DNA of 64,000 nt from Cenarchaeum sp. (GCA_965242695.1 CBDESU010000001.1:2148537-2212536); one strand, 5' to 3'. Positions 7,397 through 61,855 are shown, counted from the first letter of the stretch. The notes: generated by a model not told the origin, from the letters alone. A program made the numbers and translations.

Positions 7397-8977
7397 CTAC
7401 GGTCCGCTTCTCGACTCGCCGGCGCCCGCCCCGCCCCGCTCCGCCTCGTACCTCTCGAGCAGCCACCGGTGGTCGCCGGCCATGCGGTCGATCCGCTCGC
7501 TCATGCTCGCAATCTGCGCCCTGAGCTCGTCCGAGCCGTCCCTCCCCTCGATGACCGACGCCATCCTCGTGAACACGTTCAGGCGCGGCGCGGCCTTTGC
7601 GTACTCGCGCCGGAGCGACTCGGGGTACAGCGTCGCCTGCACCTCGTACGCGTCCTTTGGGGCGTGGCCGATCACGTGGTCGGCCACGTCGATCCTGCAC
7701 CCCGCGTCTATGAGCGTCGACTTTACGAGCTTGCGCAGCTGGTGCGAGTGGCGCGAGGGCGACTCGCGCTCGCCCGGCCGCCGCCTCACCAGGCCGGCCC
7801 TCACGGCCAGCTTTGCAAACGACCTGTGCACCCAGCTGTCCTTGATGGGGCTCCCCTGCTGCGTTATGTACAGCGGGCTGCCGTCGCCGCGCCGCAGCGG
7901 GCGGCAGGTGCGCCTCTCGCGGTCGTACAGCCAGTCCTGCAGGGCCGAGACCGCATCCCGCTCGATGAACCCCGTGTGCCGGTACGCCGTCTTGACCCTG
8001 GACAGCACGATCGGCACGGGGCACTTGTCCAGGCTCCAGTTGCGCGGGTCGTCGGTCCCCATGTGGGCCGAGACCTGGTCGAACGCCGTGTAGTTGAACC
8101 GGTCGGCGATCGTGGCCCTGTCCAGCCCGCGGTGGAACATGGACAAAAACACCGACCTCTCGAGCAGGTTCGGGCGGCCGGCCGTCAGTATCGTCGCAAA
8201 GTCGGCCAGCGTGAGCGAGTCGTCCATCCACTCGTCGCCTCCCCCCGCCTGCGCGGCCGGCCGGCCGCCGCGGGCCCTGCGCATGCGGAACTTTACGGAG
8301 TACGACACCTCGTGCGTCTCAAAGTACGACTTTAGGGCCGTCTCGGCGCTCCGCACGGACGCGACCGACAGCGACCGGTCGTCCCGGACCTCGCTGAGGA
8401 ACTCGCGCGCGATCTTGTTGAGGTCGCGCGAGCTCGACTCGGGCTCTAGGTACAGGTCGAGCAGGTCGCCGACGCCTCCGAGCGTGACCGCCTCGACGAC
8501 CTTGCCGTACGAGCCGTCCTCGCGGCGCCACCTCGTGATCTCCACCGTCCTGCCGGCGAGCCACCCGTGGAACTTGTACAGGCGGCTCGCGTACGACCGG
8601 CGCGTCCCCGTGAGGGTGCTGCTAGCCAGGTCGTGCTGAAAGTCGGTCCCGCTGAGCGTCTTGAGCCAGTAGGCGACGGACGGTATGCGCACGAACTCGG
8701 CGAGCGTGACGGACGGGCGGCTGTCTATCGCCTCGACGATCCCGGCCTTTTCCGCCGCCCGTATGGCCGCGAGGGCGCGGTTCATGCGGTGCGCGTACGA
8801 CGACGGCGGCACGTCCCTGTCGGCCGACCTCTTTGCCAGTATCGTCGACGAGACGACGTCGCCGCACCGCAGCCCGGCCAGGAAAGGGACGGCCCGGGGC
8901 GGCAGCACGCCCGACTCTACTGCCTCTACGATCTGCCGGTCAATGGCCCCTCCGTCGCCGTCGGGGCACCCCGTCAC
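7397..8977 (-). CDS. Tyrosine recombinase/integrase
   Basis: Catalytic set R (HRGLD), K (RVKT), HxLR (HQLRK), H (VIGH) and Y (DAYE); large N-terminal extension. Confidence 0.9.
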   Translation of the reverse strand: MTGCPDGDGGAIDRQIVEAVESGVLPPRAVPFLAGLRCGDVVSSTILAKRSADRDVPPSSYAHRMNRALAAIRAAEKAGIVEAIDSRPSVTLAEFVRIPSVAYWLKTLSGTDFQHDLASSTLTGTRRSYASRLYKFHGWLAGRTVEITRWRREDGSYGKVVEAVTLGGVGDLLDLYLEPESSSRDLNKIAREFLSEVRDDRSLSVASVRSAETALKSYFETHEVSYSVKFRMRRARGGRPAAQAGGGDEWMDDSLTLADFATILTAGRPNLLERSVFLSMFHRGLDRATIADRFNYTAFDQVSAHMGTDDPRNWSLDKCPVPIVLSRVKTAYRHTGFIERDAVSALQDWLYDRERRTCRPLRRGDGSPLYITQQGSPIKDSWVHRSFAKLAVRAGLVRRRPGERESPSRHSHQLRKLVKSTLIDAGCRIDVADHVIGHAPKDAYEVQATLYPESLRREYAKAAPRLNVFTRMASVIEGRDGSDELRAQIASMSERIDRMAGDHRWLLERYEAERGGAGAGESRSGP

Positions 8978-9016
8978 GCGGTACTCCCCTGCCTTGATGG
9001 GGCGCGGTTTGGTGAT

Positions 9017-9143
9017 ATGGTATTAAATGTTCATGCATTCTGGGCGCCCCGTGCTTCTGGGCGCCCCGTGCCGGCGGCATGGTATCACCAGTTCATGGAC
9101 AGGGCTGTTTGATACCATCCAGCTATATACGCTGCATGGTATC
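9017..9143. promoter_or_regulatory. Recombinase/S-layer intergenic region with four ATGGTAT motifs, a 17-bp tandem duplication and TATA-like boxes
   Basis: ATGGTAT at 9017, 9079 and 9136 (+) and GATACCAT at 9111; TTCTGGGCGCCCCGTGC x2 (9038-9071); TTAAAT at 9023, TATATA at 9124. Confidence 0.6.
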
Positions 9144-12100
9144 CAACTCCTACGTATCCCGTATTTCCGTTACTAGTATCATACTAGCCACCATCATGGT
9201 GGCCGGCGGGGTCACGTTCGCCATACCGGGAGCCATCCCGGAGGCCGCGGCCCAGTCGAGCAACGCAAACCTGTACGTGTCTGCCGAGAACAGCGCCTTT
9301 GACAACGTCTTCACGGGCCTGAACGTCGTAGAGGTCGTAGTACGCGACCCCGACCGCACCATCAGGAGCGGCAGCGACATCGCTGCCGAGCCTCGCGTGA
9401 CGGTCGACGGCGACTGGCTGAGGATGGTCCAGGGCAACGACGGCAGCTGGTACGGGTACTTTGCTGAAAACGCAAGCATTCATGTTATAGAAAATGATCA
9501 AGATAACCCTAACGCCATAGATTATGGCGAAAGATGTGATACCGGTCCGGCGGGGCTTACCGGCTACGAGTTCGAATATGCGATGTGCGCCACTGGCGCT
9601 GATCGCGATAAAGACGGCAAGCATCCGGTCATCAGGACCCCCAAGGCGATCAACAATGCAGACAACACAGGCGATCGCGTTAACTTTGGAAGCATCGGGC
9701 TCGAAAGGGCCAACCAATGGCCCTTCATCCAGGTGTACAACTTTGACGACGAGAGTGACATTGTCGTAGAGTACGAAAAGGGCGGCGATGCCCAGAGCGT
9801 CACGCTCTACTATGACAGCGATCCTGACGAGTACGGCACCGGCCTAGAGCTGGGCCGCGACAGGTATCCCTTGGGCGGCGGAGTCATCATGACCATGACC
9901 GACCTAGCGATGAATGTCGATCCGACGGACAGCGACACTTGGACGTTTACTACGGCCGACGATGGGGCATACTACTACCTGTTTGACGACAATGGCATGT
10001 GCCAGGATAACCGTAGTGATGCAAACAAGATCAACCGCGATCTTGATGGCCTTGAAGGCGTCGACGACAACCTGTACCTGACCATCGATCCCGACAAGGA
10101 CGGGTCGACGGTTCTAAAATTCATGGTGCCCCACCCGGGTAACCAGAATGACGACTGTGGTGCAGGAACAAGCACTGCCAAGACCCTGATGATGAACTCC
10201 GACACGAACAACATGGTCACCTTCATCGAGGGCGACCCGGGCGTGTTCACGAACACCAACACCAACACCGATCTGCCCAACATAGTTGTCCCCACCAACG
10301 CGGCGAGGGGCAACACAGCGGTCATCGACTACAACGACGGCGACATATCCGTGGTGGTGGGCCATACCTTTGGGACCATAACGCTAGACGACGATGCAGT
10401 CGGTGGCGTGTGGAACTCTGGTGAGGAGATACCCGTCACGCTCACGGATGCGGATATTAACCGGGCCGCCATGAACGATGAAGACATAGACGTAAGCAAT
10501 CCCGCCTTTACGATAATCCCTAGCGTGCGGATCGGCTCGCCGATCACGCTTGCGAGCGCGGAGTCGGCCATGCTGGGCAACTCCATGCTTGCTGGCTCCA
10601 ACGGCACATTCGCTGTCGATTCGTTCAGCGACGTTGGTAGGCTGATGCCCAACATGACCGCCAACACCGTAACGTTCAAGTGGGCAGAGATGGGCGAAGA
10701 GATCGGGAGCTTCCTCGCAGATGAGGAAAATAACAGGGTCTACAACGCCGACGGCAGCTTCAGGGGCGTCACTTACCCCTCTGCCACGTTCCAGTTCCTC
10801 AACTTCGATGTTCGCTCAATCGGGAGCGTAAATAGCGCAGCCTTCCAGTGGATGAACGCAAGTGGAATGCAGAGCATTCCGATTCCTGATGTCAGCGGCG
10901 GTCAGGACCTTGTCGAAATAACCAATGTCGACGTGTCCATGATTCCTGACGATGCTGACGTTTACATCATGCTGAACTTTGGTGGCAACACCCTCGAGAG
11001 CGGCATGACATACCCTGTTGTAGTCGACCTCTTTAGCTTTGGCCAGATGGGAGACGGCGTTGCCGCCAGCGAGCGGATCAACAACGCAATCTACCGGCTA
11101 GAGCTTGAGGAGAGCGGCGACAACACCGGCGTATTCGAAGGCACGATAGAGTACACGATGCTCAACCAAATTAACGTCCGTGACCCGGGCACATACAATG
11201 GCCTGGACACAATCAGTGACGCAGTCACAATGGTGGTGCACAACGACATGACCGACGAGGACTCTATCCGTGTCAACTACCTAGACCTGGGCGCCGACGG
11301 CGTTGCGACGCAGATCGCCGACCAGGTAGAGGCACCTACAACATCGGGATCGGTCTCGTTCGATGCCGACAACTACAAGGTGGCCGACACGGTCACCGTG
11401 ACCCTTGAGGATGCAGACATGAACACAGCAGTCGAGACGATCGAGATATACACGGTCGTGGACACTGCTGACGATCCAGCCTATGACATGGTCGGCGTCG
11501 AGAACTACGGCGTCAACAGCGCGGGAGATGCGTTCGGCCGCGTCCTAGACGTCACGTTCGACGACCAGCTGTGGCTTGAGGGCTGCGGCATCAGCGGCGA
11601 CAACGGCCTCGGCTCAACCGGCTTTACGCTGATCGAGACTGGCGCCGACACGGGCGTCTTCACCGGCGACTTCCAGATTCCGCTCCAGTACTGCCACAGG
11701 CTTCCCAACAACGATGTAGAAGTCCGGTCCACCACCGGCGTTGATATGGAAGTCAACTATGTTGACTACCGCGACGCCTCCGGCGAGACCCTAGAGGTCG
11801 GCGACAGCGCCGGCATCAGGGCCAACACCGGCACGGTGAGCCTAGACAGGACCGTATACCCGGTTCCGTTCGGCGTACCGGCCGACTACGGCGGCAACCC
11901 GCCGCAGGGCGCATCGATATTCCCGATCCACGCGACCGGGATAAACAGCTGGCCGGCGCCGGGCACGTTCCTGCCCAACGGCGACCTGACGATCCACATC
12001 CGGGTCAACGATCCGGACTTTGACATCTCGGCGAGCGGCGAGGACACCATTGCGGTCAACATACCTCGCGGAGACCAGACTGCGAAGACGGATGCGAGCG

Positions 12101-14076
12101 CACTTGAGCACGGGCCTTTGAAGGTCACCGTCTCGAGGGGCGCAGCATCCGTGATCGTCGCGACTGCGGGCGGCGAGGCTGCCAACGACGGCAGGATCAC
12201 CACCCTCGGCACGCGGACGTTCGTGCAGAACGAGCAGATCATGCAGGAGGTTCTCAACGACGTAATGGTCGGAACCACGCGCGAGCTTGGGCCGATCACC
12301 GAGATCGCCCCCGACGCGGGCATATTTGAGCTTGACATGGTCCTGAGGTACACCGACGGGCCGTCCGGCAACCAATGCCCGACAACGAGCGTCTTCCAGG
12401 CGCTCGACGGCAGCGACGGCACCGACGCAAATAACAGGTTTACCGACAACGTCAACACGCACTGCATACAGCAGGGCGACATCATCACCGTAGAGTACAC
12501 CGACCCGACCGACTCGTCGGGCAACCCGAACACCGTGACCGACTCGGCCACGTTCGACCTGCGCAACGGCGTGCTCCAGTCCGACAAGTCCGTCTACATC
12601 ATCGGCCAGGACATGATCCTGACGCTGATCGAGCCGGACCTCGACCTGGAGAGCGACGAGGCCGAGACGTACGATCTCGACCTGATCGAGTGGGACTCGG
12701 ACGCGGCCGGCACGACCATGGGCAACATGGGCGGCGGCGCGGTATTCGACCCCGAGCCTTCCGACCTTAGGGAGACCGGCGACAGCACTGGTATATTCCA
12801 GGTTGTAGTCGAGATACCCGAGGCGTTCGGGAACAACCGCGTAGAGCGGGGCGAGGAGATCGAGCTCGAGTACACCGACTTTGGCCCGTCTGGCGCCGAC
12901 TACGTCGGCGACGACACCGAGGACATCAACCTGACCGTCTTCACCTCCAACTTTGGGGCTACGATCGAGCTGGACCAGAAGGTCTACACGTGGACCGACA
13001 AGGTCTACATTACGATCGTCGCGCCCGACCACAACTTCGACTCGGACCTTGTCGACGAGATCGGCGAGACCTCTAGCGACCCGATCAGGGTATCCACGAG
13101 GAGCGCCGAGCTCGAGCAGTACCGCTTGGTCGAGACGGGCACCGACACCGGCATATTCGCCGGCGAGGTGATCCTGACAGGCTTCAGCCACGACGCGGAC
13201 GGCGACACCACAACGGGCAACAACGGCTACGACATCGTCAACACCCCAGCGTCCGGCACCGGCCCGACCGACGGCAAGCTTCCGACGGGCGACGACGACG
13301 GCATTACCGTGTCGTTCGAGTTCTCCGAGGACGAGACCGTCGTGACGACGGCGCTAGTGCGCTGGAGCATAGGCGAAGTGCAGTGGCTAGAGACGAGCTA
13401 CCCGGCGCAGGGCACGGGCATTGTCAGGGTCATCGACCCCGACATGAACCTGGACCCAGAGTCGGTGGACAACTTCGGCATCGACGTGTACTCGGACTCG
13501 GACTCGGGAGGCATCGACCTCACCGTGACCGAGACCAACGAGGCCACGGGCGTGTTCGAGGGGACGGTCTTCTTCACGACTACCGACGAGTCGTCGGGCC
13601 ACAGGCTGCGCGTCGCCGAGGGCGACACGATAACGGCCGAGTACACCGACGGCACGCTCCCGAACCCGTACAGCACCAACGACGATATCGACGTAACGGC
13701 AGCCGCAATCATCGGCACGATCGTGCCTCCGCTCGAGAGGGCGCCGGTCTCGAACGCCCGGGTAGTCGATTCCTTCGGGAACACGCTATCCTCGGTGTCC
13801 GTGGACCAGCAGGTGCAGATAACGGCCGACGTGATCAACGGGCAGGACCGGACGCAGTCGTTCGCGTACCTTGTCCAGATCCAGGATGCCAACGGCGTCA
13901 CCGTCTCGCTCTCGTGGATAGAGGGCTCGCTCAATCCGGGCCAGTCCCTCTCGCCAGCGCAGTCTTGGACGCCCGACATGCCAGGCTCGTACACCGCAAC
14001 GGTGTTCGTCTGGGAGTCGGTCGACAACCCGACCGCGCTGTCTCCGCCGGGCACCGTAACGGTCAACGTAAGGTAG
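9136..14076 (+). CDS. S-layer glycoprotein (Nitrosopumilus-type), copy 1
   Basis: Signal peptide TIMVAGGVTFAIPG, LYVSAEN, repeated ETGxDTGxFxG Ig-like domains and C-terminal FVWESVDNPTALS; highly acidic. Confidence 0.9.
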   Translation: MVSNSYVSRISVTSIILATIMVAGGVTFAIPGAIPEAAAQSSNANLYVSAENSAFDNVFTGLNVVEVVVRDPDRTIRSGSDIAAEPRVTVDGDWLRMVQGNDGSWYGYFAENASIHVIENDQDNPNAIDYGERCDTGPAGLTGYEFEYAMCATGADRDKDGKHPVIRTPKAINNADNTGDRVNFGSIGLERANQWPFIQVYNFDDESDIVVEYEKGGDAQSVTLYYDSDPDEYGTGLELGRDRYPLGGGVIMTMTDLAMNVDPTDSDTWTFTTADDGAYYYLFDDNGMCQDNRSDANKINRDLDGLEGVDDNLYLTIDPDKDGSTVLKFMVPHPGNQNDDCGAGTSTAKTLMMNSDTNNMVTFIEGDPGVFTNTNTNTDLPNIVVPTNAARGNTAVIDYNDGDISVVVGHTFGTITLDDDAVGGVWNSGEEIPVTLTDADINRAAMNDEDIDVSNPAFTIIPSVRIGSPITLASAESAMLGNSMLAGSNGTFAVDSFSDVGRLMPNMTANTVTFKWAEMGEEIGSFLADEENNRVYNADGSFRGVTYPSATFQFLNFDVRSIGSVNSAAFQWMNASGMQSIPIPDVSGGQDLVEITNVDVSMIPDDADVYIMLNFGGNTLESGMTYPVVVDLFSFGQMGDGVAASERINNAIYRLELEESGDNTGVFEGTIEYTMLNQINVRDPGTYNGLDTISDAVTMVVHNDMTDEDSIRVNYLDLGADGVATQIADQVEAPTTSGSVSFDADNYKVADTVTVTLEDADMNTAVETIEIYTVVDTADDPAYDMVGVENYGVNSAGDAFGRVLDVTFDDQLWLEGCGISGDNGLGSTGFTLIETGADTGVFTGDFQIPLQYCHRLPNNDVEVRSTTGVDMEVNYVDYRDASGETLEVGDSAGIRANTGTVSLDRTVYPVPFGVPADYGGNPPQGASIFPIHATGINSWPAPGTFLPNGDLTIHIRVNDPDFDISASGEDTIAVNIPRGDQTAKTDASALEHGPLKVTVSRGAASVIVATAGGEAANDGRITTLGTRTFVQNEQIMQEVLNDVMVGTTRELGPITEIAPDAGIFELDMVLRYTDGPSGNQCPTTSVFQALDGSDGTDANNRFTDNVNTHCIQQGDIITVEYTDPTDSSGNPNTVTDSATFDLRNGVLQSDKSVYIIGQDMILTLIEPDLDLESDEAETYDLDLIEWDSDAAGTTMGNMGGGAVFDPEPSDLRETGDSTGIFQVVVEIPEAFGNNRVERGEEIELEYTDFGPSGADYVGDDTEDINLTVFTSNFGATIELDQKVYTWTDKVYITIVAPDHNFDSDLVDEIGETSSDPIRVSTRSAELEQYRLVETGTDTGIFAGEVILTGFSHDADGDTTTGNNGYDIVNTPASGTGPTDGKLPTGDDDGITVSFEFSEDETVVTTALVRWSIGEVQWLETSYPAQGTGIVRVIDPDMNLDPESVDNFGIDVYSDSDSGGIDLTVTETNEATGVFEGTVFFTTTDESSGHRLRVAEGDTITAEYTDGTLPNPYSTNDDIDVTAAAIIGTIVPPLERAPVSNARVVDSFGNTLSSVSVDQQVQITADVINGQDRTQSFAYLVQIQDANGVTVSLSWIEGSLNPGQSLSPAQSWTPDMPGSYTATVFVWESVDNPTALSPPGTVTVNVR
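9169..9204 (+). other. Conserved palindromic site at the S-layer 5' end (putative recombination core), copy 1
   Basis: GTTACTAGTATCATACTAGCCACCATCATGGTGGCC is identical in all four copies; identity with copies 2-4 breaks within 2 bp upstream. Confidence 0.55.
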
Positions 14077-14094
14077 ACAACACACAGATACTAG

Positions 14095-14534: not shown

Positions 14535-14552
14535 CTAGTATCTGTGTGTTGT

Positions 14553-17500
14553 CTACCTTACGTTGACCGTTACGGTGCCCGGCGGAGACAGCGCGGTCGG
14601 GTTGTCGACCGACTCCCAGACGAACACCGTTGCGGTGTACGAGCCTGGCATGTCGGGCGTCCAAGACTGCGCTGGCGAGAGGGACTGGCCCGGATTGAGC
14701 GAGCCCTCTATCCACGAGAGCGAGACGGTGACGCCGTTGGCATCCTGGATCTGGACAAGGTACGCGAACGACTGCGTCCGGTCCTGCCCGTTGATCACGT
14801 CGGCCGTTATCTGCACCTGCTGGTCCACGGACACCGAGGATAGCGTGTTCCCGAAGGAATCGACTACCCGGGCGTTCGAGACCGGCGCCCTCTCGAGCGG
14901 AGGCACGATCGTGCCGATGATTGCGGCTGCCGTTACGTCGATATCGTCGTTGGTGCTGTACGGGTTCGGGAGCGTGCCGTCGGTGTACTCGGCCGATATC
15001 GTGTCGCCCTCGGCGACGCGCAGCCTGTGGCCCGACGACTCGTCGGTAGTCGTGAAGAAGACCGTCCCCTCAAACACGCCCGTGGCCTCGTTGGTCTCGG
15101 TCACGGTGAGGTCGATGCCTCCCGAGTCCGAGTCCGAGTACACGTCGATGTCGAAGTTGTCCACGGCCTCTGGGTCCAAGTTCATGTCACGGTCAATGAC
15201 CCTGACAATCCCCGTGCCCTGCGCCGGGTAGCTCGTTTCTAGCCACTGCACTTCGCCTATGCTCCAGCGCACTAGCGCCGTCGTCACGACGGTCTCGTCC
15301 TCGGAGAACTCGAACGACACGGTAATGCCGTCGTCGTCGCCCGTCGGAAGCTTGCCGTCGGTCGGGCCGGTGCCAGATGCAGGCGTGTCGACAATGTCGT
15401 AGCCGTTGGTGCCCGTCCTAGTGTTTCCGTCCGCGTCGTGGCTGAAGCCTGTCAGGATCACCTCGCCGGCGAATATGCCGGTGTCGGTGCCCGTCTCTAC
15501 GAGGCGATACGGCTCGAGCTCGGCGCCGCGGGTCGAGACCCGTATCGGGTCGGATCCCGTCTCGCCGATCTCGTCGACAAGGTCAGAGTCGAAGTTGTGG
15601 TCTGGCGCGACGATCGTAATGTAGACCTTGTCGGTCCACGTGTAGACCTTCTGGTCCAGCTCGATCGTTGCCCCAAAGTTGGATGTGAAGACGGTCAGGT
15701 TGATGTCCTCGTCGTCGTCGCCGACGTAGTCGGCGCCAGACGGGCCCCAGTCGGTGTACTCGAGGGTGATCTCTTCGCCCCTCTCGACCCTGTCGCCGCC
15801 TAGCTCCTCGGGTATCTCGACTACAACCTGGAATATTCCAGTGCTGTCGCCGGTCTCCCTCAGGTCGGACGGTTCGGGATCGAAGTTGACGCTGCCTCTC
15901 GGCTGGCCCACGGTGCCCATTGAAAGGGCAGCCGCGTCAGAGTCCCACTCGATCAGGTCTAGGCTATACGTCTCTGCCTCGTCGCTCTCCAGGTCGAGAT
16001 CCGGCTCGATCAGCGTCAGGATCATGTCCTGGCCGATGATGTAGACGGACTTGTCGGACTGGAGGACGCCGTTGCGCAGGTCGAACGTGGCCGAGTCGGT
16101 CACGGTGTTCGGGTTGCCCGACGCATCTGTCGGATCGGTGTACTCTACGGTCAGAATGTCGCCCTGCAGGATGCAGTGGTTTGTCTGCCCGTCGGAGAAC
16201 CTGGTAAGGGCGCTCTCGGTCTTCATGTTCGTCTCGGATATCCTCTCGCCCTCAAGCGGCTCGAAGGATCCCGTCTCGGGACACTGCGAGCTGGCCGGGC
16301 CATCAGTGTACCTGATCGGCAGGTCGAGCTCGAATATGCCGGCGTCGGGGGCGATCTCGGTGATCGGCCCTAGCTCTCTGGTCTGGGACACGTCGCGTAT
16401 CCGCTCCTGGATGGTTCCGTCAGCCATTCTCACGATGGTAGATGCCGTCCCTGCAGAGGCCACATCCGAGCCGGACGTGATCACGCCGCCCATATTGTCT
16501 TCGTTGCCTATCTTTGCTGGACCTCCTGCGGTAGCGATAACCACTGTATCAGCACCCCTCGAGATTGACACCTTGAGGGGGCCATGTGTCTTGTCGTCAC
16601 CGCGATCGATCGCTTCGCTTATCACGTCTTCGCCGCTAGCCGATATGTCGTAGTCGGGATCGTTGATCCGGACATGCACTGTCAGATCGCCCGTCGGCAG
16701 GTATGTGTTGACGGTGCCTACGTTGCCACCGTGGCCGGTGGAGTGTATCGGGAATATGGTGTTGGGAGTCATGCGAGTAAAGCTGTTGTCGTTGTTCCTC
16801 GTGGTAAAGTCATTGGCAGTACCGAACGGAACGGGATAGACAGTCCTGTCTAGACTGACAGTACCGGTGTTGGCCCTGATGCCGGCGCTGTCGCCGACTT
16901 CTATAGTCTCGCCGGAGGCGTCACGGTAGTCAACATAGTTGACCTCCATGTCGACGCCGGTGGTAGACCTAGACTCGTCACCGATGCTGGTCCTGTGGCA
17001 GTAGTTTGACGGAATCTGGAAGTCGCCGGTAAAGACGCCGGTATCGGCGCCCGTCTCGATCAGCGTAAAGCCGGTCTCGCCGAGGCCGTTGTCTACGTCA
17101 TCGTCTATGCTTGCTTCGCAACCCTTAAGCCATAGCTGGTCGTCGAACGTAATGTCTAGGACGCGTCCCAGTGCAGCGCCGCTGGCGACACCGCCAAGGC
17201 GCCCGTACCCGGGCTCGCCAATCATGTCAAATGCAGGATCGCGTATGTCGGGAAGTTCGTTGCCCTGCGCGTCCACAGCCTTGTAGGTCGTGTCGACCGC
17301 AGTGTAGATGTCCACCGTCTCGACGGCAGTGTTCAGGTCGGCATCTTCGAGTGTGACTGTGACCGTGTCGGCCACCTTGTAGTTGTCAGCATCGAATGAT
17401 ACCGACCCCGATACCGTCGGAGCCTCCACTTGGTCGGCGATCTGCGTCGCAACGCCGTCGGCTCCCAAGTCGCGGTAGTTGACGCGGACAGAGTCCTCGT

Positions 17501-19667: not shown

Positions 19668-19893
19668 ATCCCGCCGGGCCATCGGGGCGGCGCCAGCCGT
19701 CGGCGTGCATTCGGCAGGGTGGGCCGGACATTGGCGCGGGCGGAACCGGGACTCGGCCTCTGACCTTGGCGCGCTGTCGGGCGGGCGGCTTGGCGCCGCA
19801 TGGTGCGGGATTGTCCTCCCATCCCACTCCGCCGGCCCGTTCGCTCGCCGTCAAAAGGCAGGGTACATAACCCACCCAAGTTTTCCCACGGAC

Positions 19894-22770: not shown

Positions 22771-22772
22771 CA

Positions 22773-26724: not shown

Positions 26725-26728
26725 GCCG

Positions 26729-48280: not shown

Positions 48281-48491
48281 GCGCATGCGCAGCCGCCGTA
48301 GCGTTCGACGCGGATGCGGCGGAAGCGCACCCTGAGGCGTCATGGAGCCTGCGTGGCGCCCGCCCCAATGCCGACATCTGTGCCGGTGAGCGCCGCCTAC
48401 GGCTGCCGACGGCAAGCGCAGCTGGCTGCCCGACGCGCGCTGCCGGACCGCGCCGGATGCACAACGGGGCCGGCCGCTGGCGCGGCGGGAT

Positions 48492-53687: not shown

Positions 53688-53704
53688 ACGACAAAAGATA
53701 CTAG

Positions 53705-53750
53705 TTTCACTTTCCTTTTTTCATTTTTTTAAATCCTTCTTCGTGGGGGA
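53705..53750 (+). terminator. T-rich terminator after S-layer copy 3
   Basis: Poly-T runs after the stop codon. Confidence 0.6.
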
Positions 53751-54317
53751 TGCTGTGCCCCCACATGCACGTCATGTTTGATATGGGCCAACTGTGAGAT
53801 ACATGATGTTGCCAAGTCGTTGACCTGCCCAGTCTCGGGAAGTGCCCCGCTGCCTGTTGACGAGTCCCGACCGGCCACCGCACCGCTGTCGCTGCCCCCT
53901 GACGAGGGCAGCGGGCGGAATACCGTCGAGTGTCGATCTATATGGCATCCGGACATGTCGTGCCTTGTCAAGCGGCGCACGGCCGCGGATGATCCGTTGG
54001 TTATCCGTCCCCCGCTTAGCAGGCGCAGTGTAGGTTGGTTCCGATCGACAATGGCGGTGCACGACCACCGCATGCCTCCGAGAGTCCCGTTGTCCCTGCA
54101 CCCGGTAAGAGACCGACATGAACGCAACCGTTCCGCCGCTATAGGGGGCAGGCCGCCTGTTCGGACGCCTGTCGGGACGTTTGTCGCCGAGTGCACCCCG
54201 CCTGTCCCCGACCCCTAGGCGCCGTGCGTTCCCGTGCTGGCGCGCGGGCTTGCACGGCTTGTGATTTTTCGTCCTGCCGGGCGCCAGGGCCCTGATGGCG
54301 CCCGTGCCATGTGCATG

Positions 54318-55103
54318 TCATCTGCTACCAGGTACCGCTGCGCGGGCGGTGGCCGCCCATGCGGCCGCCGCATTGCCTGCAGCTGTGGCGAATTCAGTCC
54401 ATGCATCCGCCGCCGCGGACGTTTCCTTCGCACCGGCATCCGCCGCCGCCGCTGCGTCCTTCATCGCCGCTATTGCCTGCTTATCTGCCTCGGCCGCATC
54501 GGCGGCCACCGGAACCAGGTCTATCCGCACCCCCGCACTCGCCGCCGCCGCCGCATGCATGGCCGCGGCGGCGGCGGCGGCCGCAACCGACGCTGCGCGG
54601 GATGCCGCCGCATCAGCCGCCTGCTCATCCGCCGCTGCGCGGGATGCCGCTGCCGCTGCGCGGGATGCCGCTGCCGCTGCCGACGCATCCGCCTCTTCCT
54701 TTGCCGCCGCCGCCTGCGCGTCAGCGGCCCGCACCGCGGCCTGCTCTTCCTTCGCCGCCGTCCCGTGCGCGCTTGCCCGCGTTATCGCCGCCGCCGCCGC
54801 GTGGCGCGCATTGGATCGCAGTTCATACTCCGCCGCTTGTCGCTCGTACTCCGCCGCCGCCTTGTACGCCACCACTGCCAGTTCGTGCGCCATTGCCGCG
54901 CGGCCATCGGCTAGACGCGCCGCGCGGCCATCGGCTAGACGCGCCGCACCGGCCATGTCGTCAGCAACCGCCCGGTGCGCGACGGCCCGTTCGTATGCCG
55001 CCGTTGCCCTATGCGCCGCTACTGCCGCCCGGTGCGCGACGGCGGCCGCCGCCGCCCATGCCGCCGCTGCGCCACCCGCCAACGCATCTGCCGCTAATGC
55101 CAT
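54318..55103 (-). CDS. Ala-rich low-complexity helical protein
   Basis: TTAAAA about 25 bp upstream of ATG; internal 21-bp and 24-bp repeats. Confidence 0.45.
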   Translation of the reverse strand: MALAADALAGGAAAAWAAAAAVAHRAAVAAHRATAAYERAVAHRAVADDMAGAARLADGRAARLADGRAAMAHELAVVAYKAAAEYERQAAEYELRSNARHAAAAAITRASAHGTAAKEEQAAVRAADAQAAAAKEEADASAAAAASRAAAAASRAAADEQAADAAASRAASVAAAAAAAAMHAAAAASAGVRIDLVPVAADAAEADKQAIAAMKDAAAAADAGAKETSAAADAWTEFATAAGNAAAAWAATARAAVPGSR

Positions 55104-55216
55104 CAAAGTGCCGCATGGGTTGTATGTTTTAACCTTGACGCTGTGCCCGCGTGCTCGCATGCGGTGCAGTTTGAGCACCATGTTTGGACTGCAGGTTGGC
55201 GGCACCTAGATGATTG

Positions 55217-55618
55217 TCACTGTGCCGCTTGCATGGGCATGCGGCATTCTCTTGTCGCCGCACGTGCCTCGTCTGCCGCCGCCCGCGCCGCCCGCGCGGC
55301 GGCGCGGGCGGCCTCTATTATGCCGGCGTCGGCGGCGGGTGGTGACCCGCGAGACGGCGCGGCAACATAAAGGGCGGCCTGTTCGGCCTCGTCGGCGGCC
55401 TGTTCGGCCTCGTCGGCGGCACTCTTGGAGTTCCGCCACGCCAGGTGCGCGACGGCCTGTTCGGTGCGCTCAATGCTGGCGTCGATGGTCTTGCCGCTGC
55501 CGAGTGTTATCATCATCTCAACGGCGCGCGTTGCGGCGGCGGCTGATGCGGCAGCGACCCCATATGCGGTCGCACGGTCCGTAGCATCTTTGGCCGCGGC
55601 GCGCCGCGCGTCGTCCAT
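55217..55618 (-). CDS. Ala-rich helical protein
   Basis: TTAAGTA about 25 bp upstream; AADEAEQ x2 repeat. Confidence 0.45.
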   Translation of the reverse strand: MDDARRAAAKDATDRATAYGVAAASAAAATRAVEMMITLGSGKTIDASIERTEQAVAHLAWRNSKSAADEAEQAADEAEQAALYVAAPSRGSPPAADAGIIEAARAAARAARAAADEARAATRECRMPMQAAQ

Positions 55619-55945
55619 GCCGCGCGCACGCGCCGACGCTACTTAACTGCTTCGGCCCGCGCGGCCGCATGTGCGGAGGGCTTTGGGCTTACGCACTTGT
55701 GCCCGGCGGGCGCCCCGGCGCCCGCGGCGGCCATCCGCATGCTCCTTCAACGGGCCGCCGCCCGCTACCTGTCCTCCGCTCCGCCTCTGGGGTGCCGCAC
55801 CCGTGCCGGCAGGTGCGTCCCGAGGGTGCCGAACGGGCGCCAACGCTTAGCGGCTCCAGACAGCATTAAAAACACCCGTAGGCCGCCTGCTCGCGATGGC
55901 GGGCCAGCACAGCTGGGGCGAGGCTGGTCCCGGGGGCGATCAGAC

Positions 55946-56353
55946 ATGGGCGACATGGGCGCGATCACCACCAGCCTTCACCTCGCCTCAGAGCTCCTCC
56001 GGCCGTACATGGCGACCCTAAAAGATGCCAGGTCGCGCGGCGGCTTTACAGAGCGGCAGGACGAAGTCCAGAGCCTCTTGGACGTCCTCGTTCCGATGAG
56101 CCTCCACCTCCGGGACATGTCCTGCTTTAACCTTGGCATTGACGGCGAGAGGATGTCAGAATTCCTGCGCCGCCGTCACCGCGAGGGCTGGCCTGCAGCT
56201 AGGGACGACATCATCTCGCTCGCCTTGAGGCTCGAAAAAAGCGGCGGTTCCAAGGCGGCCCTCTCGGGGAAGGATATGTCCGTCCTTGACGGCGTGGCCG
56301 TGTCCCTCGACAGTGTGTGCTCGTATCTGTACAGGAAGACGCGCCGGAGATGA
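55946..56353 (+). CDS. Hypothetical protein
   Basis: Normal amino-acid composition; ATGA overlap with a short downstream ORF (56350-56559). Confidence 0.5.
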   Translation: MGDMGAITTSLHLASELLRPYMATLKDARSRGGFTERQDEVQSLLDVLVPMSLHLRDMSCFNLGIDGERMSEFLRRRHREGWPAARDDIISLALRLEKSGGSKAALSGKDMSVLDGVAVSLDSVCSYLYRKTRRR

Positions 56354-56854
56354 ACGTGGAATATCTGAGGCGCACGATCCGCGATCAGATCGACAGGGCG
56401 CAGTCGCTAGCGGATGGGATCCCGCGCAGGTCCGGGCATGCCGTCTTGGGGCGCTTGGCCGCCTCGTGCAGGGCCGCACTGGAAGGGGGGGGGCGCAGCC
56501 GTTCAACGCCGGAACACGCCCACTGGCGCATGAATGCGGGCGCTGCGGATGAAGGATGAGGAGATGCGATGGTACGGGTGTGCAGTGATCCCCTGCTAGA
56601 GTACGACCACGCCTTTCCGCCTCTGACGGCCGAGAGGCTGCCGAGTCTGTAATTCCGGTTCGGCCGATCGGGCCGAGAGCTATTCCAACGAGAAGGACGC
56701 AAGACAGGGACTGCCACATGCCGTCTCCCTTTTGAACAATGCCGGCGGGGTTTTCCAGGGCGAGGGTGACGCGGACTTCAGTCCTGAACAGAAACTCGTC
56801 GCCAAGCCGCCCCCTGCACCACATCCATGTGCATCACAGGCGGGGGCACAGCAT

Positions 56855-56900
56855 CCCCCACAAAGAAGGATTCAAAAAAATGAAAAAAGGAAAAGTGAAA
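56855..56900 (-). terminator. T-rich terminator after S-layer copy 4
   Basis: A-rich on the + strand; same block as after the other copies. Confidence 0.6.
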
Positions 56901-56920
56901 CTAGTATCTGTGTGTGTTGT

Positions 56921-59900
56921 CTACCTTACGTTGACCGTTACGGTGCCCGGCGGAGACAGCGCGGTCGGGTTGTCGACCGACTCCCAGACGAACACCGTTG
57001 CGGTGTACGAGCCTGGCATGTCGGGCGTCCAAGACTGCGCTGGCGAGAGGGACTGGCCCGGATTGAGCGAGCCCTCTATCCACGAGAGCGAGACGGTGAC
57101 GCCGTTGGCATCCTGTATCTGGACAAGGTACGCGAACGACTGCGTCCGGTCCTGCCCGTTGATCACGTCGGCCGTTATCTGCACCTGCTGGTCCACGGAC
57201 ACCGAGGATAGCGTGTTCCCGAAGGAGTCTACCACCCTGGCGTTCGAGACCGGCGCCCTCTCGAGCGGAGGCACGATCGTGCCGATGATTGCGGCTGCCG
57301 TTACGTCAATGTCGTCGTTGGTGCTGTACGGGTTCGGGAGCGTGCCGTCGGTGTACTCGGCCGTTATCGTGTCGCCCTCGGCGACGCGCAGCCTGTGGCC
57401 CGACGACTCGTCCGTTGTGGTGAAGAAGACCGTCCCCTCGAACACGCCCGTGGCCTCGTTGGTCTCGGTCACGGTGAGGTCGATGCCTCCCGAGTCCGAG
57501 TCCGAGTACACGTCGATGCCGAAGTTGTCCACGGCCTCGGGGTCTAGGTTCATGTCGGGGTCGATGACCCTGACGATGCCCGTTCCCTGTGCCGGGTAGC
57601 TCGTCTCTAGCCACTGCACCTCGCCGATGCTCCAGCGCACTAGCGCCGTCGTCACGACGGTCTCGTCCTCGGAGAACTCGAACGACACGGTAATGCCGTC
57701 GTCGTCTCCCGTCGGAAGCTTGCCGTCGGTCGGGCCGGTGCCGGACGCTGGGGTGTTGACGATGTCGTAGCCGTTGGTGCCCGTTGTGGTGTCGCCGTCC
57801 GCGTCGTGGCTGAAGCCGGTCAGGATCACCTCGCCGGCGAATATGCCGGTGTCGGTGCCCGTCTCGACCAGGCGGTACTGCTCGAGCTCGGCGCTCCTCG
57901 TGGAGACCCTGATCGGGTCGCTAGAGGTCTCGCCGATCTCGTCGACGAGGTCCGAGTCGAAGTTGTGGTCCGGCGCGACGATCGTGATGTAGACCTTGTC
58001 GGTCCATGTGTAGACCTTCTGGTCCAGCTCGATAGTCGCACCAAAGTTGGAGGTGAAGACGGTCAGGTTGATGTCCTCGGTGTCGTCGCCAACGTAGTCG
58101 GCGCCAGACGGGCCAAAGTCGGTGTACTCGAGCTCGATCTCCTCGCCCCGCTCTACGCGGTTGTTGTTGAACGCCTCGGGTATCTCGACTACAACCTGGA
58201 ATATACCAGTGCTGTCGCCGGTCTCCCTCAGGTCGGAAGGCTCGGGGTCGAACACGGCGCCGCCGCCAAGGTTGCCCATGGTAAGGCCGGCCGCGTCGGA
58301 GTCCCACTCGATCAGGTCGAGATCGTACGTCTCGGCCTCGTCGCTCTCCAAGTCGAGATCCGGCTCGATCAGCGTCAGGATCATGTCCTGGCCGATGATG
58401 TAGACGGACTTGTCGGACTGGAGGACGCCGTTGCGCAGGTCGAACGTGGCCGAGTCGGTCACGGTGTTCGGGTTGCCCGACGAGTCGGTCGGGTCGGTGT
58501 ACTCTACGGTCAGAATGTCGCCCTGCTGTATGCAGTGGGTCGGAACGTTGTCGGTAAACCTGTTCTGGGCTGCAGTGCCGTCGCTACCGTCGAGCGCCTG
58601 GAAGACGCTCGTTGTCGGACACTGCGAGCCGGACGGCCCGTCGGTGTACCTCAGGACCAGGTCTAGCTCGAATATGCCCGCGTCGGGGGCGATCTCGGTG
58701 ATTGGACCAAGTTCCCTCGTCATGGACTCGCCGGTAGAGACTATCTCGTTGAGCGTGACTTGCCGCGATATGAACTGCGCCGGATCGGTGTCCGGAACCT
58801 GTTCTATGATGTTGGCAGTGCCCAAGGTCGTGATTCGTCCATCGTTAGCCTCTGGACCGCCCGCAGTGCCGACTATGACGCTGGATGCGCCCCTCGAGAC
58901 CGTAATCTTGAGAGGCCCATGCGTGCTCACGCCGTTGCGTTCTACGGTCGTCTCTATCTTGTCCTCGCCGCTTGCCGAGACATCAAAGTCCGGGTCGTTG
59001 ATGCGCACGTGGATTGTCAGGTCGCCGTTGGGCAGGAACGTGCCCGCCGCGGGCCAAGTTCCGAGCCCGGTCGCGTGGATCGGGAACACGGATGCGCCCT
59101 GAGGCGGGTTGCCGCCGTAGTCGGCCGGTACGCCGAACGGAACCGGGTATACGGTCCTGTCTAGGCTCACCGTGCCGGTGTTGGCCCTGATGCCGGCGCT
59201 GTCGCCGACCTCTAGGGTCTCGCCAGAGGCGTCGCGGTAGTCAACATAGTTGACCTCCATGTCGACGCCGGTGGTGGACCTGGCCTCTGCCGCGTTGTTG
59301 CCAAGCCTGTGGCAGTACTGCAACGGGATCTGGAAGTCGCCGGTAAAGACGCCCGTGTCAGATCCCGTCTCGATCAGCGTAAAGCCGGTAGCGCCGAGGC
59401 CGTTGTCAACACTGGCATCTATTGGAGTTCTATCCTCCCCTAGGGCGGGATCTCCAACCATGCAGCCTTCGAGCCACAGCTGGTCGTCGAACGTAATGTC
59501 CAAGACGCGGCCGAACGACTCGCGGGCGCTGTTGAGGCCGTAGCCGTCAACGCCGACCATGTCATATGCCGGATCGTCAGGGGTGTCCACAACGGTGTAG
59601 ATCTCGATCGTCTCGACATCTACGTTGAGGTCGGCATCTTCCAGCGTCACGGTGACCGTGTCGGCCACCTTGTAGTTGTCGGCATCGAACGAGACCGAAC
59701 CAGATGTCGTCGGAGCCTCTACCTGGTCGGCGATCTGCGTCGCAACGCCATCGGCGCCCAGGTCTCGGTAGTTGACGCGCACAGAGTCCTCGTCGGTGAG
59801 GTCGTTGTGCACTATCAGGTTGATCGTGTCGCTGATCGTGTCAAGGTTATCTAGGTATGTGTTGCGATCGCGGACGTTGATCTGGTTGAGCATCGTGTAC

Positions 59901-61855
59901 TCCATCGTGCCCTCAAACACGCCAGTGTTGTCGCCGCTCTCCTCCAGCTCCAGCCGGTAGATGGCGTTGTTGATCCGCTCGCTGGCGGCAACGCCGTCGC
60001 CCATCTGGCCAAAGCTAAAGAGATCGACTGCGACGGGGTATGTCATGCCGTTATCAAGAGTGGCGCTTCCAAAGTCCAGCATTATGTCGACAGACTCAGC
60101 ATCTGCGAGTCTGCTGACATCAACACTGGTTATGTCCACAAGGCCTTGGTTGCTACCCCTGACGTTCGGTATGTTGATACTCTGCGCAGTGCCGTTGTTC
60201 CACTGGAACTCTGCGCTGCGAAGATCGCCGATTGAGCGAACGTCGAAGTTGAGGAACTGGAACGTGGCAGAGGGATAGCTTACACCTATGAGGCTGCCGT
60301 CCCTGTAGACCTTGTTGTTTTCCTCGTCAGCAAGGAACGAGTCAAGCGCTTCACCGGTAGTCACTCCCTCGAACGTGACAGTGCTGTCGCCGGTCGCGTT
60401 AAGCGTAAGCCTAGCGACGTCACTGAACAAGTCGACTGCAAACGTACCGTTGTTGCCTGCTAGTGGCCTGTCCCCTACCATGGCAGAGGTGGCGCCGGCG
60501 AGCGTGATCGGCGAGCCGATACGCACGCTTGGAATTATCGTGAAGTCTGGATCGCTCACGGTAATGTCTTCGTCGTTCATGGCCTTCCGGTTTACGTCTG
60601 CATCCGTCAGTGTGACGGGTATCTCCTCGCCAGAGTTCCACACGCCGCCGACTGCATCGTCGTCGAGCGTTATGGTTCCAAAGGCGTGACCCACCACCAC
60701 GGACTGGATGGCGTCGTTGTGGTCAACGACGGCAGAGGTTCCCCTCTTTGCCATGTCGCTGACGACGACGTTGGGGGTGTCACTGTCACTGTCGGTGTTC
60801 GTGAACACGCCGCTGTTTGATCCCGTCTCGATAAATGTGACTATGTATTCCATGGCACCTACACCGGTGCTAGGAATGCCATCGGAGTTCTGGTTGCCAC
60901 CTTTCTGCTCCATGATCATTACTGCGTCATTTTCAGCACCTTCCGCATTGCGGTTGATCGTCAGATATAGATTGTCGTCAATCCCAGCAAGATCGCGATT
61001 AATTGCGTCAGGATCAGTATTGGGTGTTGCATCGCCGTCGTCGTCAAAGACATAGTAGTATGCCCCTTGGCTACCGGTAGTGTCAAACGTCCAAGTGTCC
61101 TCGTCCGTCGGATCCACGTTCATTGCAAGGTCGGTCATGGTCATGATGACGCCGCCGCCCTGCGGATACCTGTCGCGGCCCAGCTCCAAGCCGGTGCCGT
61201 ACTCGTCAGGATCGCTGTCGTAGTAGAGGGTGACGCTCTGTGTGTTGCCACCCTTCTGATACTCTACGACGATGTCGGTCTCGTCGTCAAATCCATACAC
61301 CTGTATAAAGGGCCAGTCATTCACATCTGCAAGGTTGATGCTCCCAGTGTTGCCGGGAGCCGCCGTGTTGGCGGCCTTGTCGGTTCGGATGACCGGGTGA
61401 TTGCCCTCGCGGGCGCAGAAGACATCGTCCGTGCCATATGTAGGCACACCAATGTCGCATGTGGGGTCGCCATAGTCTATGGCGCCAGAAGTGTCTGCAT
61501 CCATAATGTTAGCATGTGCAAAGTACCCGTACCAGTTGCCGTCGTTGCCCTGGACCATCCTCAGCTGGTCGCCGTCAACCTCGACGCGAGGCTCGGCCGA
61601 CGGAATGTCGTCGGCATCGCCGCGGAAGTTGATGTCGGAGTCGCGAACGACTACCTCCACCACGTTGAGGCCGCTGAAGACGTTGTCAAAGGCGCTGTTC
61701 TCGGCGGACACGTACAGGTTGTTGTCGTTGCTCGACTGGGCCGCGGCCTCCGGGATCGCTCCCGGTATGGCGAACGTGACCCCGCCGGCCACCATGATGG
61801 TGGCTAGTATGATACTAGTAACGGCATGCCCGTTCCTTGCTGTTTTTGATACCAT
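56921..61855 (-). CDS. S-layer glycoprotein, copy 4
   Basis: Paralog of copy 1; no TATA box upstream. Confidence 0.9.
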   Translation of the reverse strand: MVSKTARNGHAVTSIILATIMVAGGVTFAIPGAIPEAAAQSSNDNNLYVSAENSAFDNVFSGLNVVEVVVRDSDINFRGDADDIPSAEPRVEVDGDQLRMVQGNDGNWYGYFAHANIMDADTSGAIDYGDPTCDIGVPTYGTDDVFCAREGNHPVIRTDKAANTAAPGNTGSINLADVNDWPFIQVYGFDDETDIVVEYQKGGNTQSVTLYYDSDPDEYGTGLELGRDRYPQGGGVIMTMTDLAMNVDPTDEDTWTFDTTGSQGAYYYVFDDDGDATPNTDPDAINRDLAGIDDNLYLTINRNAEGAENDAVMIMEQKGGNQNSDGIPSTGVGAMEYIVTFIETGSNSGVFTNTDSDSDTPNVVVSDMAKRGTSAVVDHNDAIQSVVVGHAFGTITLDDDAVGGVWNSGEEIPVTLTDADVNRKAMNDEDITVSDPDFTIIPSVRIGSPITLAGATSAMVGDRPLAGNNGTFAVDLFSDVARLTLNATGDSTVTFEGVTTGEALDSFLADEENNKVYRDGSLIGVSYPSATFQFLNFDVRSIGDLRSAEFQWNNGTAQSINIPNVRGSNQGLVDITSVDVSRLADAESVDIMLDFGSATLDNGMTYPVAVDLFSFGQMGDGVAASERINNAIYRLELEESGDNTGVFEGTMEYTMLNQINVRDRNTYLDNLDTISDTINLIVHNDLTDEDSVRVNYRDLGADGVATQIADQVEAPTTSGSVSFDADNYKVADTVTVTLEDADLNVDVETIEIYTVVDTPDDPAYDMVGVDGYGLNSARESFGRVLDITFDDQLWLEGCMVGDPALGEDRTPIDASVDNGLGATGFTLIETGSDTGVFTGDFQIPLQYCHRLGNNAAEARSTTGVDMEVNYVDYRDASGETLEVGDSAGIRANTGTVSLDRTVYPVPFGVPADYGGNPPQGASVFPIHATGLGTWPAAGTFLPNGDLTIHVRINDPDFDVSASGEDKIETTVERNGVSTHGPLKITVSRGASSVIVGTAGGPEANDGRITTLGTANIIEQVPDTDPAQFISRQVTLNEIVSTGESMTRELGPITEIAPDAGIFELDLVLRYTDGPSGSQCPTTSVFQALDGSDGTAAQNRFTDNVPTHCIQQGDILTVEYTDPTDSSGNPNTVTDSATFDLRNGVLQSDKSVYIIGQDMILTLIEPDLDLESDEAETYDLDLIEWDSDAAGLTMGNLGGGAVFDPEPSDLRETGDSTGIFQVVVEIPEAFNNNRVERGEEIELEYTDFGPSGADYVGDDTEDINLTVFTSNFGATIELDQKVYTWTDKVYITIVAPDHNFDSDLVDEIGETSSDPIRVSTRSAELEQYRLVETGTDTGIFAGEVILTGFSHDADGDTTTGTNGYDIVNTPASGTGPTDGKLPTGDDDGITVSFEFSEDETVVTTALVRWSIGEVQWLETSYPAQGTGIVRVIDPDMNLDPEAVDNFGIDVYSDSDSGGIDLTVTETNEATGVFEGTVFFTTTDESSGHRLRVAEGDTITAEYTDGTLPNPYSTNDDIDVTAAAIIGTIVPPLERAPVSNARVVDSFGNTLSSVSVDQQVQITADVINGQDRTQSFAYLVQIQDANGVTVSLSWIEGSLNPGQSLSPAQSWTPDMPGSYTATVFVWESVDNPTALSPPGTVTVNVR
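61787..61822 (-). other. Putative recombination core, copy 4
   Basis: Reverse complement of 9169-9204. Confidence 0.55.

Follow-up and report, generated by a model that had tools for sequence, protein, structure and literature searches.

The stretch analysed here, 64,000 nucleotides of a Cenarchaeum sp. genome (GCA_965242695.1, CBDESU010000001.1:2148537-2212536; hereafter the window), contains four S-layer protein genes arranged in two convergent pairs and one tyrosine recombinase gene lying beside the first of them. Their layout suggests a switch in which DNA inversion would bring one of several silent S-layer gene bodies to a single expression site. The window comprises the last 64 kb of contig C1 of the source genome (G000), position 64000 being the contig end. 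The genome was assembled into two contigs, C1 and C2, with a size of 3.89 Mb, and C1:1-28698 overlaps the last 28.7 kb of C2 with 96.5% identity across a tandem array of ~384-bp repeats. Because the contigs overlap at these ends in addition to the overlap at the S-layer genes described below, they represent one circular chromosome, left unclosed by the assembler at two places. The G+C content of the window is 57-72%. In total, 41 genomes, G000 included, were taken for the survey of relatives, five of which form a same-genus set (G000, G001, G002, G003, and G004).

The four very long open reading frames (ORFs) of the window encode products of 1,644-1,731 amino acids (aa) and are referred to below as copies, or cassettes, 1 to 4. 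The product of copy 3 matched the S-layer protein of Nitrosopumilus maritimus (8c8k_A, 1,734 aa; E = 0, 1531.5 bits) in two stretches, the best of which spans residues 1134-1730 of both proteins. The Pfam scan assigned no family to any of the four products, Pfam having no model for this protein. A first-pass annotation, made from the sequence of the window, had recognised four full-length S-layer paralogues of a thaumarchaeon; the ORFs together with the homology to 8c8k confirm the paralogues, and the same homology bears out the host, which is an ammonia-oxidiser-type archaeon.

The predicted recombinase reached 28.8 bits with PF00589 (cut-off 27.1; E 1.3e-6; residues 326-439) and 30.5 bits in the whole-genome scan. 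Its AlphaFold2 model, built from 26 homologues, had a mean predicted local distance difference test score of 80.3. Foldseek comparison of the model with the PDB returned 22 matches at E ≤ 0.001 (best 1.7e-5), with target-normalised template modelling scores of 0.40-0.53; the matches listed included XerA, lambda Int, XerH, Tn1549 Int, an integron integrase, and the phage Brujita integrase, and Cre fell just above the cut-off (E 5.7e-3). The family and fold matches agree with the earlier description of an intact tyrosine recombinase head-to-head with copy 1. Searches of the PDB by sequence and by profile gave no match at E ≤ 1. Residues R327, K329, H412, R415, H438, and Y451 (also Y444) were invariant in the 26 homologues, which share 31-90% identity; the first six are taken by us, from the family motif, to be the catalytic set. 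The gene is the sole PF00589 match in the genome, as is its homologue in G004, and the PF00239 scan of the G000 genome gave no match. Among the 41 genomes, homologues occurred in five, namely G000, G004 (80% identity), G001 (two copies, 43% and 40%), G005 (32%, with two stops), and G037. Assignment to archaeal XerA, the enzyme of chromosome dimer resolution, was rejected: the NCBIfam equivalog model scored 24.3 bits against a cut-off of 220, and a housekeeping role is at odds with homologues in just 5 of 41 genomes and with G002, a single contig of 96% completeness, in which the PF00589 scan found no match.

Alignment of the 5' regions and direct listing showed that all copies become identical after a common T, from TACTAGTATC onward, at 9170/9171, 19632/19633, 48526/48527, and 61820/61821. 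The shared start point within the signal-peptide codons and the inverted orientation of sites 2 and 4 relative to site 1, both noted at first pass, were reproduced exactly; site 3 has the orientation of site 1, and the order of the sites along the chromosome is + - + -. Perfect identity extends over 63 nt in all copies and over 85 nt between cassettes 3 and 4, and the next ~300 bp are 85-93% identical. The 63-nt block opens with two abutting perfect 15-bp palindromes of 7-1-7 form, CTAGTATCATACTAG and CCACCATCATGGTGG. Perfect 7-1-7 palindromes number 1,171 in the genome, abutting pairs being found solely at the S-layer sites, and the first palindrome, CTAGTATCATACTAG, has no other occurrence in the genome. 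The block is identical in all eight S-layer genes of G000 and G004. Roughly estimated, about six synonymous differences would be expected in its 21 codons, and none was observed. Since the block is frozen between the species though synonymous divergence (dS) in the conserved C-terminal part of the S-layer genes is ~0.4-0.5, the comparison argues for a constraint acting on the DNA of the block itself. An exact scan for the 29-nt core of the block gave no occurrence in genome-contig and metagenome-contig collections, from which records near the window were possibly left out.

The DNA upstream of cassettes 1, 2, and 3 is designated U1, U2, and U3, respectively, and the expression site located on C2 is designated U5. 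Alignment confirmed two further statements of the first-pass annotation: copies 2 to 4 have in common ~40 bp of GC-rich upstream DNA lacking a TATA box, and the upstream DNA of copy 1 is different and more AT-rich. U2 and U3 are GC-rich and contain no AT-rich element; the co-directional ORF within U3 belongs to a repeated family without a name. ATGGTATC(A) is retained in U1, U2, and U3 of both G000 and G004, 35-36 nt away from the junction, the letters between having diverged. Five of the eight genome occurrences of ATGGTATCA fall in the U regions upstream of the block, and U1 holds an inverted pair of the ATGGTATCA/ATGGTATC motif in both genomes. This upstream ATGGTATCA, ~35 nt away, is put forward, purely as a hypothesis, as a candidate arm-type binding site. 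The proposal that U1 (8980-9168) serves as the expression site was not borne out, since just 6 nt separate its TATATA from the ATG and the element is not shared by G004, whose U1 counterpart keeps the inverted ATGGTATC pair and has no TATA.

A predicted promoter was found where the contigs part. C2:1-12526 equals window 49296-61821 at 100.000% identity, and the contigs diverge at 61821/61822, which is the junction of copy 4. Past this point, C2 reads on the gene strand TTATATA, 26 nt, and ATG AAA AAC GAA ATA CAC AGG AAA CT/T ACT AGT (the slash marks the junction). The resulting ORF of 1,641 aa (C2 7626..12551) begins MKNEIHRKLTSIILAT, its product has the N-terminus MKNEIHRKL-TSIILATIMVAGG, and its first nine signal-peptide codons travel with the U5 promoter. 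One alternative considered in the first-pass annotation placed the expression site outside the window, with all four copies silent; the site does lie outside, and cassette 4 is joined to it, the other three copies being promoterless. Beyond U5, about 2.3 kb of C2 (12680-15000) is extremely G+C-rich and has no convincing ORF: all six frames are open, the translations are rich in Arg, Pro, Gly, and Ala, and G004 has no counterpart there.

On C1, the same cassette 4 body continues into a different sequence. From 61822 to the contig end, the window folds back as the reverse complement of 46347-48525, over 2,179 nt with no mismatches and one gap in a G-run; copies 3 and 4 thus share 2,179 bp of upstream DNA, more than the ~40 bp first noticed. 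The assembly therefore holds both a cassette 4-U5 and a cassette 4-U3 junction. The fold-back probably represents the U3-cassette 4 junction that inversion between sites 3 and 4 would leave as its reciprocal product, or else it is an assembly artefact. It corresponds to the walk expected in a bidirected assembly graph that holds both orientations of the segment between these sites, and the differing homopolymer call suggests that the two U3 copies were built from different read piles. The positions of these features are listed in Table 1.

Table 1. Features of the S-layer locus and its surroundings (window coordinates unless C2 is given).
Feature	Position	Strand	Remarks
Tyrosine recombinase	7397..8977	-	526 aa, GTG start, head-to-head with cassette 1
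U1, recombinase/cassette 1 divergent intergenic region	8978..9170	.	ATGGTATCA at 9079 (+), inverted copy at 9111 (-)
U1, further motifs			ATGGTATC at 9136 (+, MVS start); TATATA at 9124-9129
Cassette 1, S-layer gene	9079/9136..14076	+	Intact ORF; promoterless position (U1)
Site 1	9171..9233	+	63-nt block; palindromes 9173-9187 and 9188-9202
Cassette 2, S-layer gene	14553..19682	-	Intact ORF; promoterless position (U2); convergent with cassette 1
Site 2	19570..19632	-	63-nt block, inverted; palindromes 19601-19630
U3, upstream of cassette 3	46347..48526	+	GC-rich, no TATA; co-directional ORF ends ~210 bp before cassette
Cassette 3, S-layer gene	48492..53687	+	Intact ORF; promoterless position (U3)
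Site 3	48527..48589	+	63-nt block; palindromes 48529-48558
Spacer between convergent cassettes 3 and 4	53688..56920	.	3.2 kb; ORFs without family match
Cassette 4, S-layer gene	ORF 56921..61855, body 56921..61821	-	Same body joined to promoter-bearing U5 on C2
Site 4	61758..61820	-	63-nt block, inverted; palindromes 61789-61818
Fold-back	61822..64000	-	Reverse complement of U3 joined to cassette 4 body, to contig end
U5, predicted expression site	C2:12527 onward		TTATATA 26 nt before ATG, joined to cassette 4
NsnA/GmrSD_N-like nuclease	5825-7321	+	E 1e-42
Type II DNA methyltransferase	23231-24688	+	E 3.6e-41
955-aa protein	31856-34723		MG2 and Ig-like domains
AriA/OLD-like AAA ATPase	37840-39987	-	E 1.7e-21

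The S-layer gene bodies have a mosaic structure: identity over the last 600 bp is 97-100% within a genome and 91-93% between genomes, the inverted 1.9-kb 3' regions are 92-96% identical among copies, and the first two thirds of the bodies are 30-75% identical in many windows. Since the 3' ends are more alike within than between genomes, the pattern shows, at the sequence level, what appears to be concerted evolution by active gene conversion among the bodies. Between the site and the stop codon, seven of the eight G000 and G004 bodies are uninterrupted. The ratio of nonsynonymous to synonymous divergence (dN/dS), calculated with the Nei-Gojobori method for nine pairs from the G000 and G004 bodies, was 0.15-0.29 in every pair. 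Three of the interspecies pairs have both members promoterless, with dS of 0.8-1.25 in their variable N-terminal 1,000 codons. By these values, the promoterless cassettes are under purifying selection and kept functional, which implies that they are translated at some time. In the N. maritimus structure, most glycans are carried by the N-terminal segment, mainly by the outermost domains 1, 2, and 4 (PMC11153153). By analogy with this solved homologue, whose glycans sit N-terminally, the variable N-terminal two thirds should include the exposed, glycan-bearing part of the protein.

The combination of this recombinase with several S-layer genes, which the first-pass annotation had proposed looking for in relatives, was found in G004 and G001. 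The G004 genome contains four S-layer copies in two convergent pairs, with sites in the order + - + - and the recombinase (80% identity) head-to-head with the end copy. One of its 5' ends is a near-identical U5 (TATA, MKNEIHRKL), and three are GC-rich and promoterless. Its recombinase-adjacent cassette has a 1-nt deletion ~110 nt after the site (G004 C2:1115001-1135000, around 15640-15680 of that stretch), which breaks the frame and represents either a pseudogene or a consensus error. Outside the cassettes, the G000 and G004 loci have collinear flanks of at least 20 kb beyond the recombinase and 8 kb beyond U5, while the DNA between the cassette pairs is inverted, U5 pairing with U2 in G004 and with U3 in G000. 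Such an inversion is consistent with exchange between sites 1 and 4 or between sites 2 and 3; it was rejected as proof of exchange at the 5' sites, because either of these events and recombination between the 3' repeats give the same topology.

In G001, four copies form two convergent pairs ~150 kb apart around contig ends. The expression copy has TTTTATA and the N-terminus MNNKLGRKITS/LTIMTIM. The other three are identical from TCTTACGATAATG, have in-frame stops just upstream, and contain no ATG before the hydrophobic core; two of them are open over 1,690-1,747 codons, and one is split into frames of 482 and 1,267 codons. These three startless copies are, to judge from their sequences, true silent cassettes. 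Of the two G001 recombinase homologues, one is separated from the end cassette by 4.4 kb, and the 4-kb locus of the second contains no S-layer gene. The remaining congeners have neither cassettes nor this recombinase. G002 contains a single S-layer gene, with TTTATAT ~30 nt before the ATG and the N-terminus MKDRNIYRKM-TSIILATIM. G003 contains two in direct orientation, each with its own TATA box and MK(D/N)KI.NDKIRKTTSLIIMTIM, and its four PF00589 matches are unrelated to this recombinase and far from the S-layer genes. Cassettes and recombinase are therefore both present in three of the five same-genus genomes and both absent from two, which is a pattern rather than a statistic, as the genomes are few and related. 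A common N-terminal type, MK/MN...(R)K..TS with a TATA box, is shared by the self-promoted genes of G002 and G003 and the expression copies of G004 and G001. Since U5 matches this promoter type, it appears to be the native S-layer promoter and the expression site.

The surroundings of the locus encode several defence functions (Table 1), which fits a region shaped by virus pressure. Repeated units are abundant in the window. A unit of ~1-1.9 kb with 82-88% identity (20289-21305, 43241-48262, 62085-64000) is present as three tandem copies upstream of cassette 3 and as a single degenerate copy upstream of cassette 2. The unit encodes a ~330-aa ORF (62067-63059 in the fold-back) without a Pfam, NCBIfam, or PADLOC match; the U3 copy of this ORF is cut to 210 codons by the G-run (10 vs 11 G), which may reflect a consensus error or a slippage tract. 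Between the cassette pairs, many units of 350-700 bp, 76-89% identical and in both orientations (28318-31707, 34684-37481, 41537-42884), contain small ORFs of ~110-160 aa without a family match. The region 956-2946 and 3505-4201 includes a ~500-bp tandem repeat with 83-96% identity and, within a 731-aa TPR protein, a tandem repeat of 102 bp. One more unit, of ~1 kb, is present once in the window (22279-23295) and in four tandem copies on C2 (23268-27878; 82-85% identity).

Fourteen public sequencing runs, none of RNA, were available as k-mer contigs, and four of them (X1, X3, X4, and X5) were compared with C2:6001-16000. Loose contig ends at C2 12526 run into U3-like (X3) or U2-like (X5) letters, a fit that need not exceed the shared block. 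Contig depth in X3 was 340-400 over cassette 4 and the spacer and 245-353 over the U5 flank, similar values that would hint at a single rather than a double occurrence of the 12.5-kb overlap; contig depth is not copy number, and these values were given no weight. The runs labelled as sponge metagenomes contained 0.22-0.24 of the words, and no habitat claim was drawn from them.

From these data, a mechanism can be proposed. Four bodies in two convergent pairs, with 5' sites in the order + - + -, would share U5 as the sole native TATA promoter and start. Exchange between the U5 site and an oppositely oriented one would invert the DNA between them and fuse another body in frame to U5. The inversion partners of U5 would be site 3, at 13.3 kb, and site 1, at 52.7 kb, and cassette 2 would need two steps to reach U5. 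Inversion between sites 3 and 4 would turn the 3.2-kb spacer around together with the two cassettes. In the main arrangement, U3-cassette 3 ... cassette 4-U5, cassette 4 would be the expressed copy. Catalysis would probably fall to the adjacent tyrosine recombinase, at the twin palindromes or next to them. Transcription from U5, the reversibility and rate of the exchange, and its benefit to the cell are predicted parts of this scheme. The likely purpose would be a change of the exposed coat, evading viruses or the host, because the variable N-terminal two thirds match the part with the outer glycan-bearing domains. One expression site with silent full-length cassettes, recombined by inversion within the signal-peptide codons and accompanied by a dedicated tyrosine recombinase, had been proposed in the first-pass annotation, and the layout, the two relatives, and the alternative assembly junction support it. 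On the sequence evidence, inversion at these sites as a means of S-layer switching is likely to be real. A multi-inversion, shufflon-like switch with a single expression site, probably driven by the recombinase, is the more specific and somewhat less certain form of this claim, and catalysis by the adjacent enzyme in particular is rated slightly better than even.

Several observations weigh against this interpretation. The k-mer contigs of the public runs break off after ~30 nt of the shared block, as does record 8 of X1, which starts at C2 12497, and none bridges a junction. An identical repeat of 63-85 nt could have given rise to the fold-back as an artefact of the assembler or the library. 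The inversion between G000 and G004 is equally explicable by homologous recombination in the 1.9-kb 3' regions, and the mosaic bodies produced by gene conversion blur their orthology between species, for which reason the mapping of body orthology was abandoned. The promoterless cassettes of G000 and G004 keep an in-frame ATG, and low-level independent expression is conceivable. The two ties between the recombinase and the sites are position and co-occurrence, and its wider family (33-48% identity) is scattered over related archaea and may include mobile-element integrases. The G001 site has no palindromes and carries a tandem 9-bp repeat instead; if the 43%-identical G001 enzyme acts there, a different sequence is recognised.

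Part of this evidence would also suit switching by general homologous recombination or gene conversion, RadA-dependent in the way that the Campylobacter fetus sap system depends on RecA, and operating at the 5' blocks, the 3' regions, or both, with the recombinase as a bystander such as a domesticated or relic integrase. The mosaic bodies with their genome-specific 3' ends and the inverted 1.9-kb 3' repeats are what such a process would leave, and the recombinase family is widespread and mostly located away from S-layer genes, as is the second G001 copy. The shared 5' block is nevertheless just 63 nt long, has a sharp upstream edge, and shows no synonymous change between the species, features indicative of a sequence-specific site, and the twin palindromes are confined to the S-layer sites. 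Moreover, the recombinase stands beside the end cassette in three species (43-80% identity) and is absent from the two cassette-free congeners, and in two of the three genomes this enzyme is the sole tyrosine recombinase. Switching by recombination of this general kind, with the recombinase as a bystander, is considered unlikely. Integration of a mobile element, with the recombinase as its integrase and the shared block as its attachment site within S-layer genes, had been listed as an alternative at first pass; it draws on the integrase-like Pfam family and on the neighbouring defence genes, which are typical of variable islands. G000 and G004 are collinear through the recombinase, U1, and at least 20 kb of flank, the neighbours of the recombinase include no other recognised mobile-element genes, and four alternating sites at the 5' ends of complete paralogues are unlike an attL/attR pattern, so that this explanation is very improbable.

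Programmed switching might also be absent, the copies being ordinary paralogues (duplication relics, or genes with weak or unrecognised promoters or transcribed by read-through) and the fold-back an artefact. The three G001 cassettes speak against this, being startless with upstream stops, yet open over 1,690-1,747 codons in two cases, as do the promoterless pairs, in which dN/dS is 0.15-0.29 with dS reaching 1.2. Three species retain both the one native promoter and sites that alternate in orientation, and an artefact would have had to connect two sites separated by 13 kb at precisely the homologous base. The in-frame ATG codons kept by the G000 and G004 cassettes would suit ordinary paralogues, the co-directional ORF before cassette 3 makes read-through conceivable, and six putative S-layer proteins are expressed in another sponge-associated thaumarchaeon (PMC6790972). 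On balance, an absence of switching seems rather unlikely, below the estimate given to general recombination. Inversion at the 5' sites, with one promoter serving all cassettes, remains the preferred reading.

Most archaea have no cell wall other than the S-layer. That of ammonia oxidisers has the further role of concentrating ammonium (PMC11153153). If the switch exists, the archaeal surface would be under strong and fluctuating selection from viruses or a host, and the S-layer gene sets described as "expanded" in sponge-associated thaumarchaea (PMC6790972) would have an explanation. The locus would also offer a new recombinase-site pair together with a set of lattice proteins that are naturally interchangeable. 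According to the available text of a long-read inverton survey, archaeal chromosomal invertons have been minimally investigated, and its 42 archaeal datasets covered Euryarchaeota and Crenarchaeota only (bioRxiv 10.1101/2023.03.11.532203); a bacterial survey of gene-altering inversions, as far as its available text describes, did not scan archaea (PMC9881135). Full-text literature searching returned no description of S-layer switching in an archaeon, in line with the first-pass statement that no such system was known to have been described. There is about an even chance that the locus represents the first programmed multi-inversion antigenic variation in Archaea, exchanging a whole S-layer protein among at least four cassettes, with gene-conversion mosaics and a divergent recombinase acting on a twin-palindrome core and perhaps also recognising the upstream ATGGTATCA arm-type motif ~35 nt away.

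In bacteria, changing the coat by inverting DNA is a textbook strategy. At the sap locus of Campylobacter fetus, several complete S-layer homologues share one promoter; their 5' ends are conserved, they lie in either orientation, and the expressed coat changes through nested inversions. The 5' homology of ~600 bp is recombined in a RecA-dependent manner, and the promoter lies on the invertible segment. Here, unlike in sap, the identical block is 63 nt, a recombinase is adjacent, and the promoter is located at the end of the array; a sap-type mechanism based on long 5' homology was rejected, since perfect identity spans 63 nt, or 85 nt between cassettes 3 and 4. In the R64 shufflon, the tyrosine recombinase Rci acts on several sfx sites with one conserved arm and by nested inversions exchanges the C-termini of a plasmid-encoded pilus adhesin. 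The present locus resembles it in having one recombinase, alternating sites, and a conserved arm on one side of the crossover, and differs in that everything after the first 9-11 codons would be swapped, on an archaeal chromosome. The slpA/slpB pair of Lactobacillus acidophilus is comparable in that inversion between oppositely oriented genes places a silent S-layer gene at the active promoter (PMC3666127); that system comprises two genes in a bacterium, with no dedicated recombinase described in the available text of that report, whereas four sites and nested inversions are predicted here. In the vsa/HvsR system of Mycoplasma pulmonis, one promoter site serves silent paralogues through site-specific inversion, with an adjacent tyrosine recombinase (PMC2268961). 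The present locus differs from vsa in its archaeal TATA promoter, in its cargo, which is a whole ~1,640-1,730-aa lattice-forming S-layer protein rather than a lipoprotein, and in the 9 codons that travel with the promoter, compared with 714 nt in vsa (PMC2268961). Its recombinase also belongs to a divergent family without a PDB sequence match, and its catalysis is predicted only. With vsa, as with M. agalactiae vpma/Xer1 and M. bovis vsp, it shares one promoter-bearing 5' site, silent paralogues, and an adjacent recombinase; the vsa/vpma-type features recognised by sequence at this locus are the single promoter site, the promoterless paralogues, the inverted identical 5' sites, and the recombinase beside the locus.

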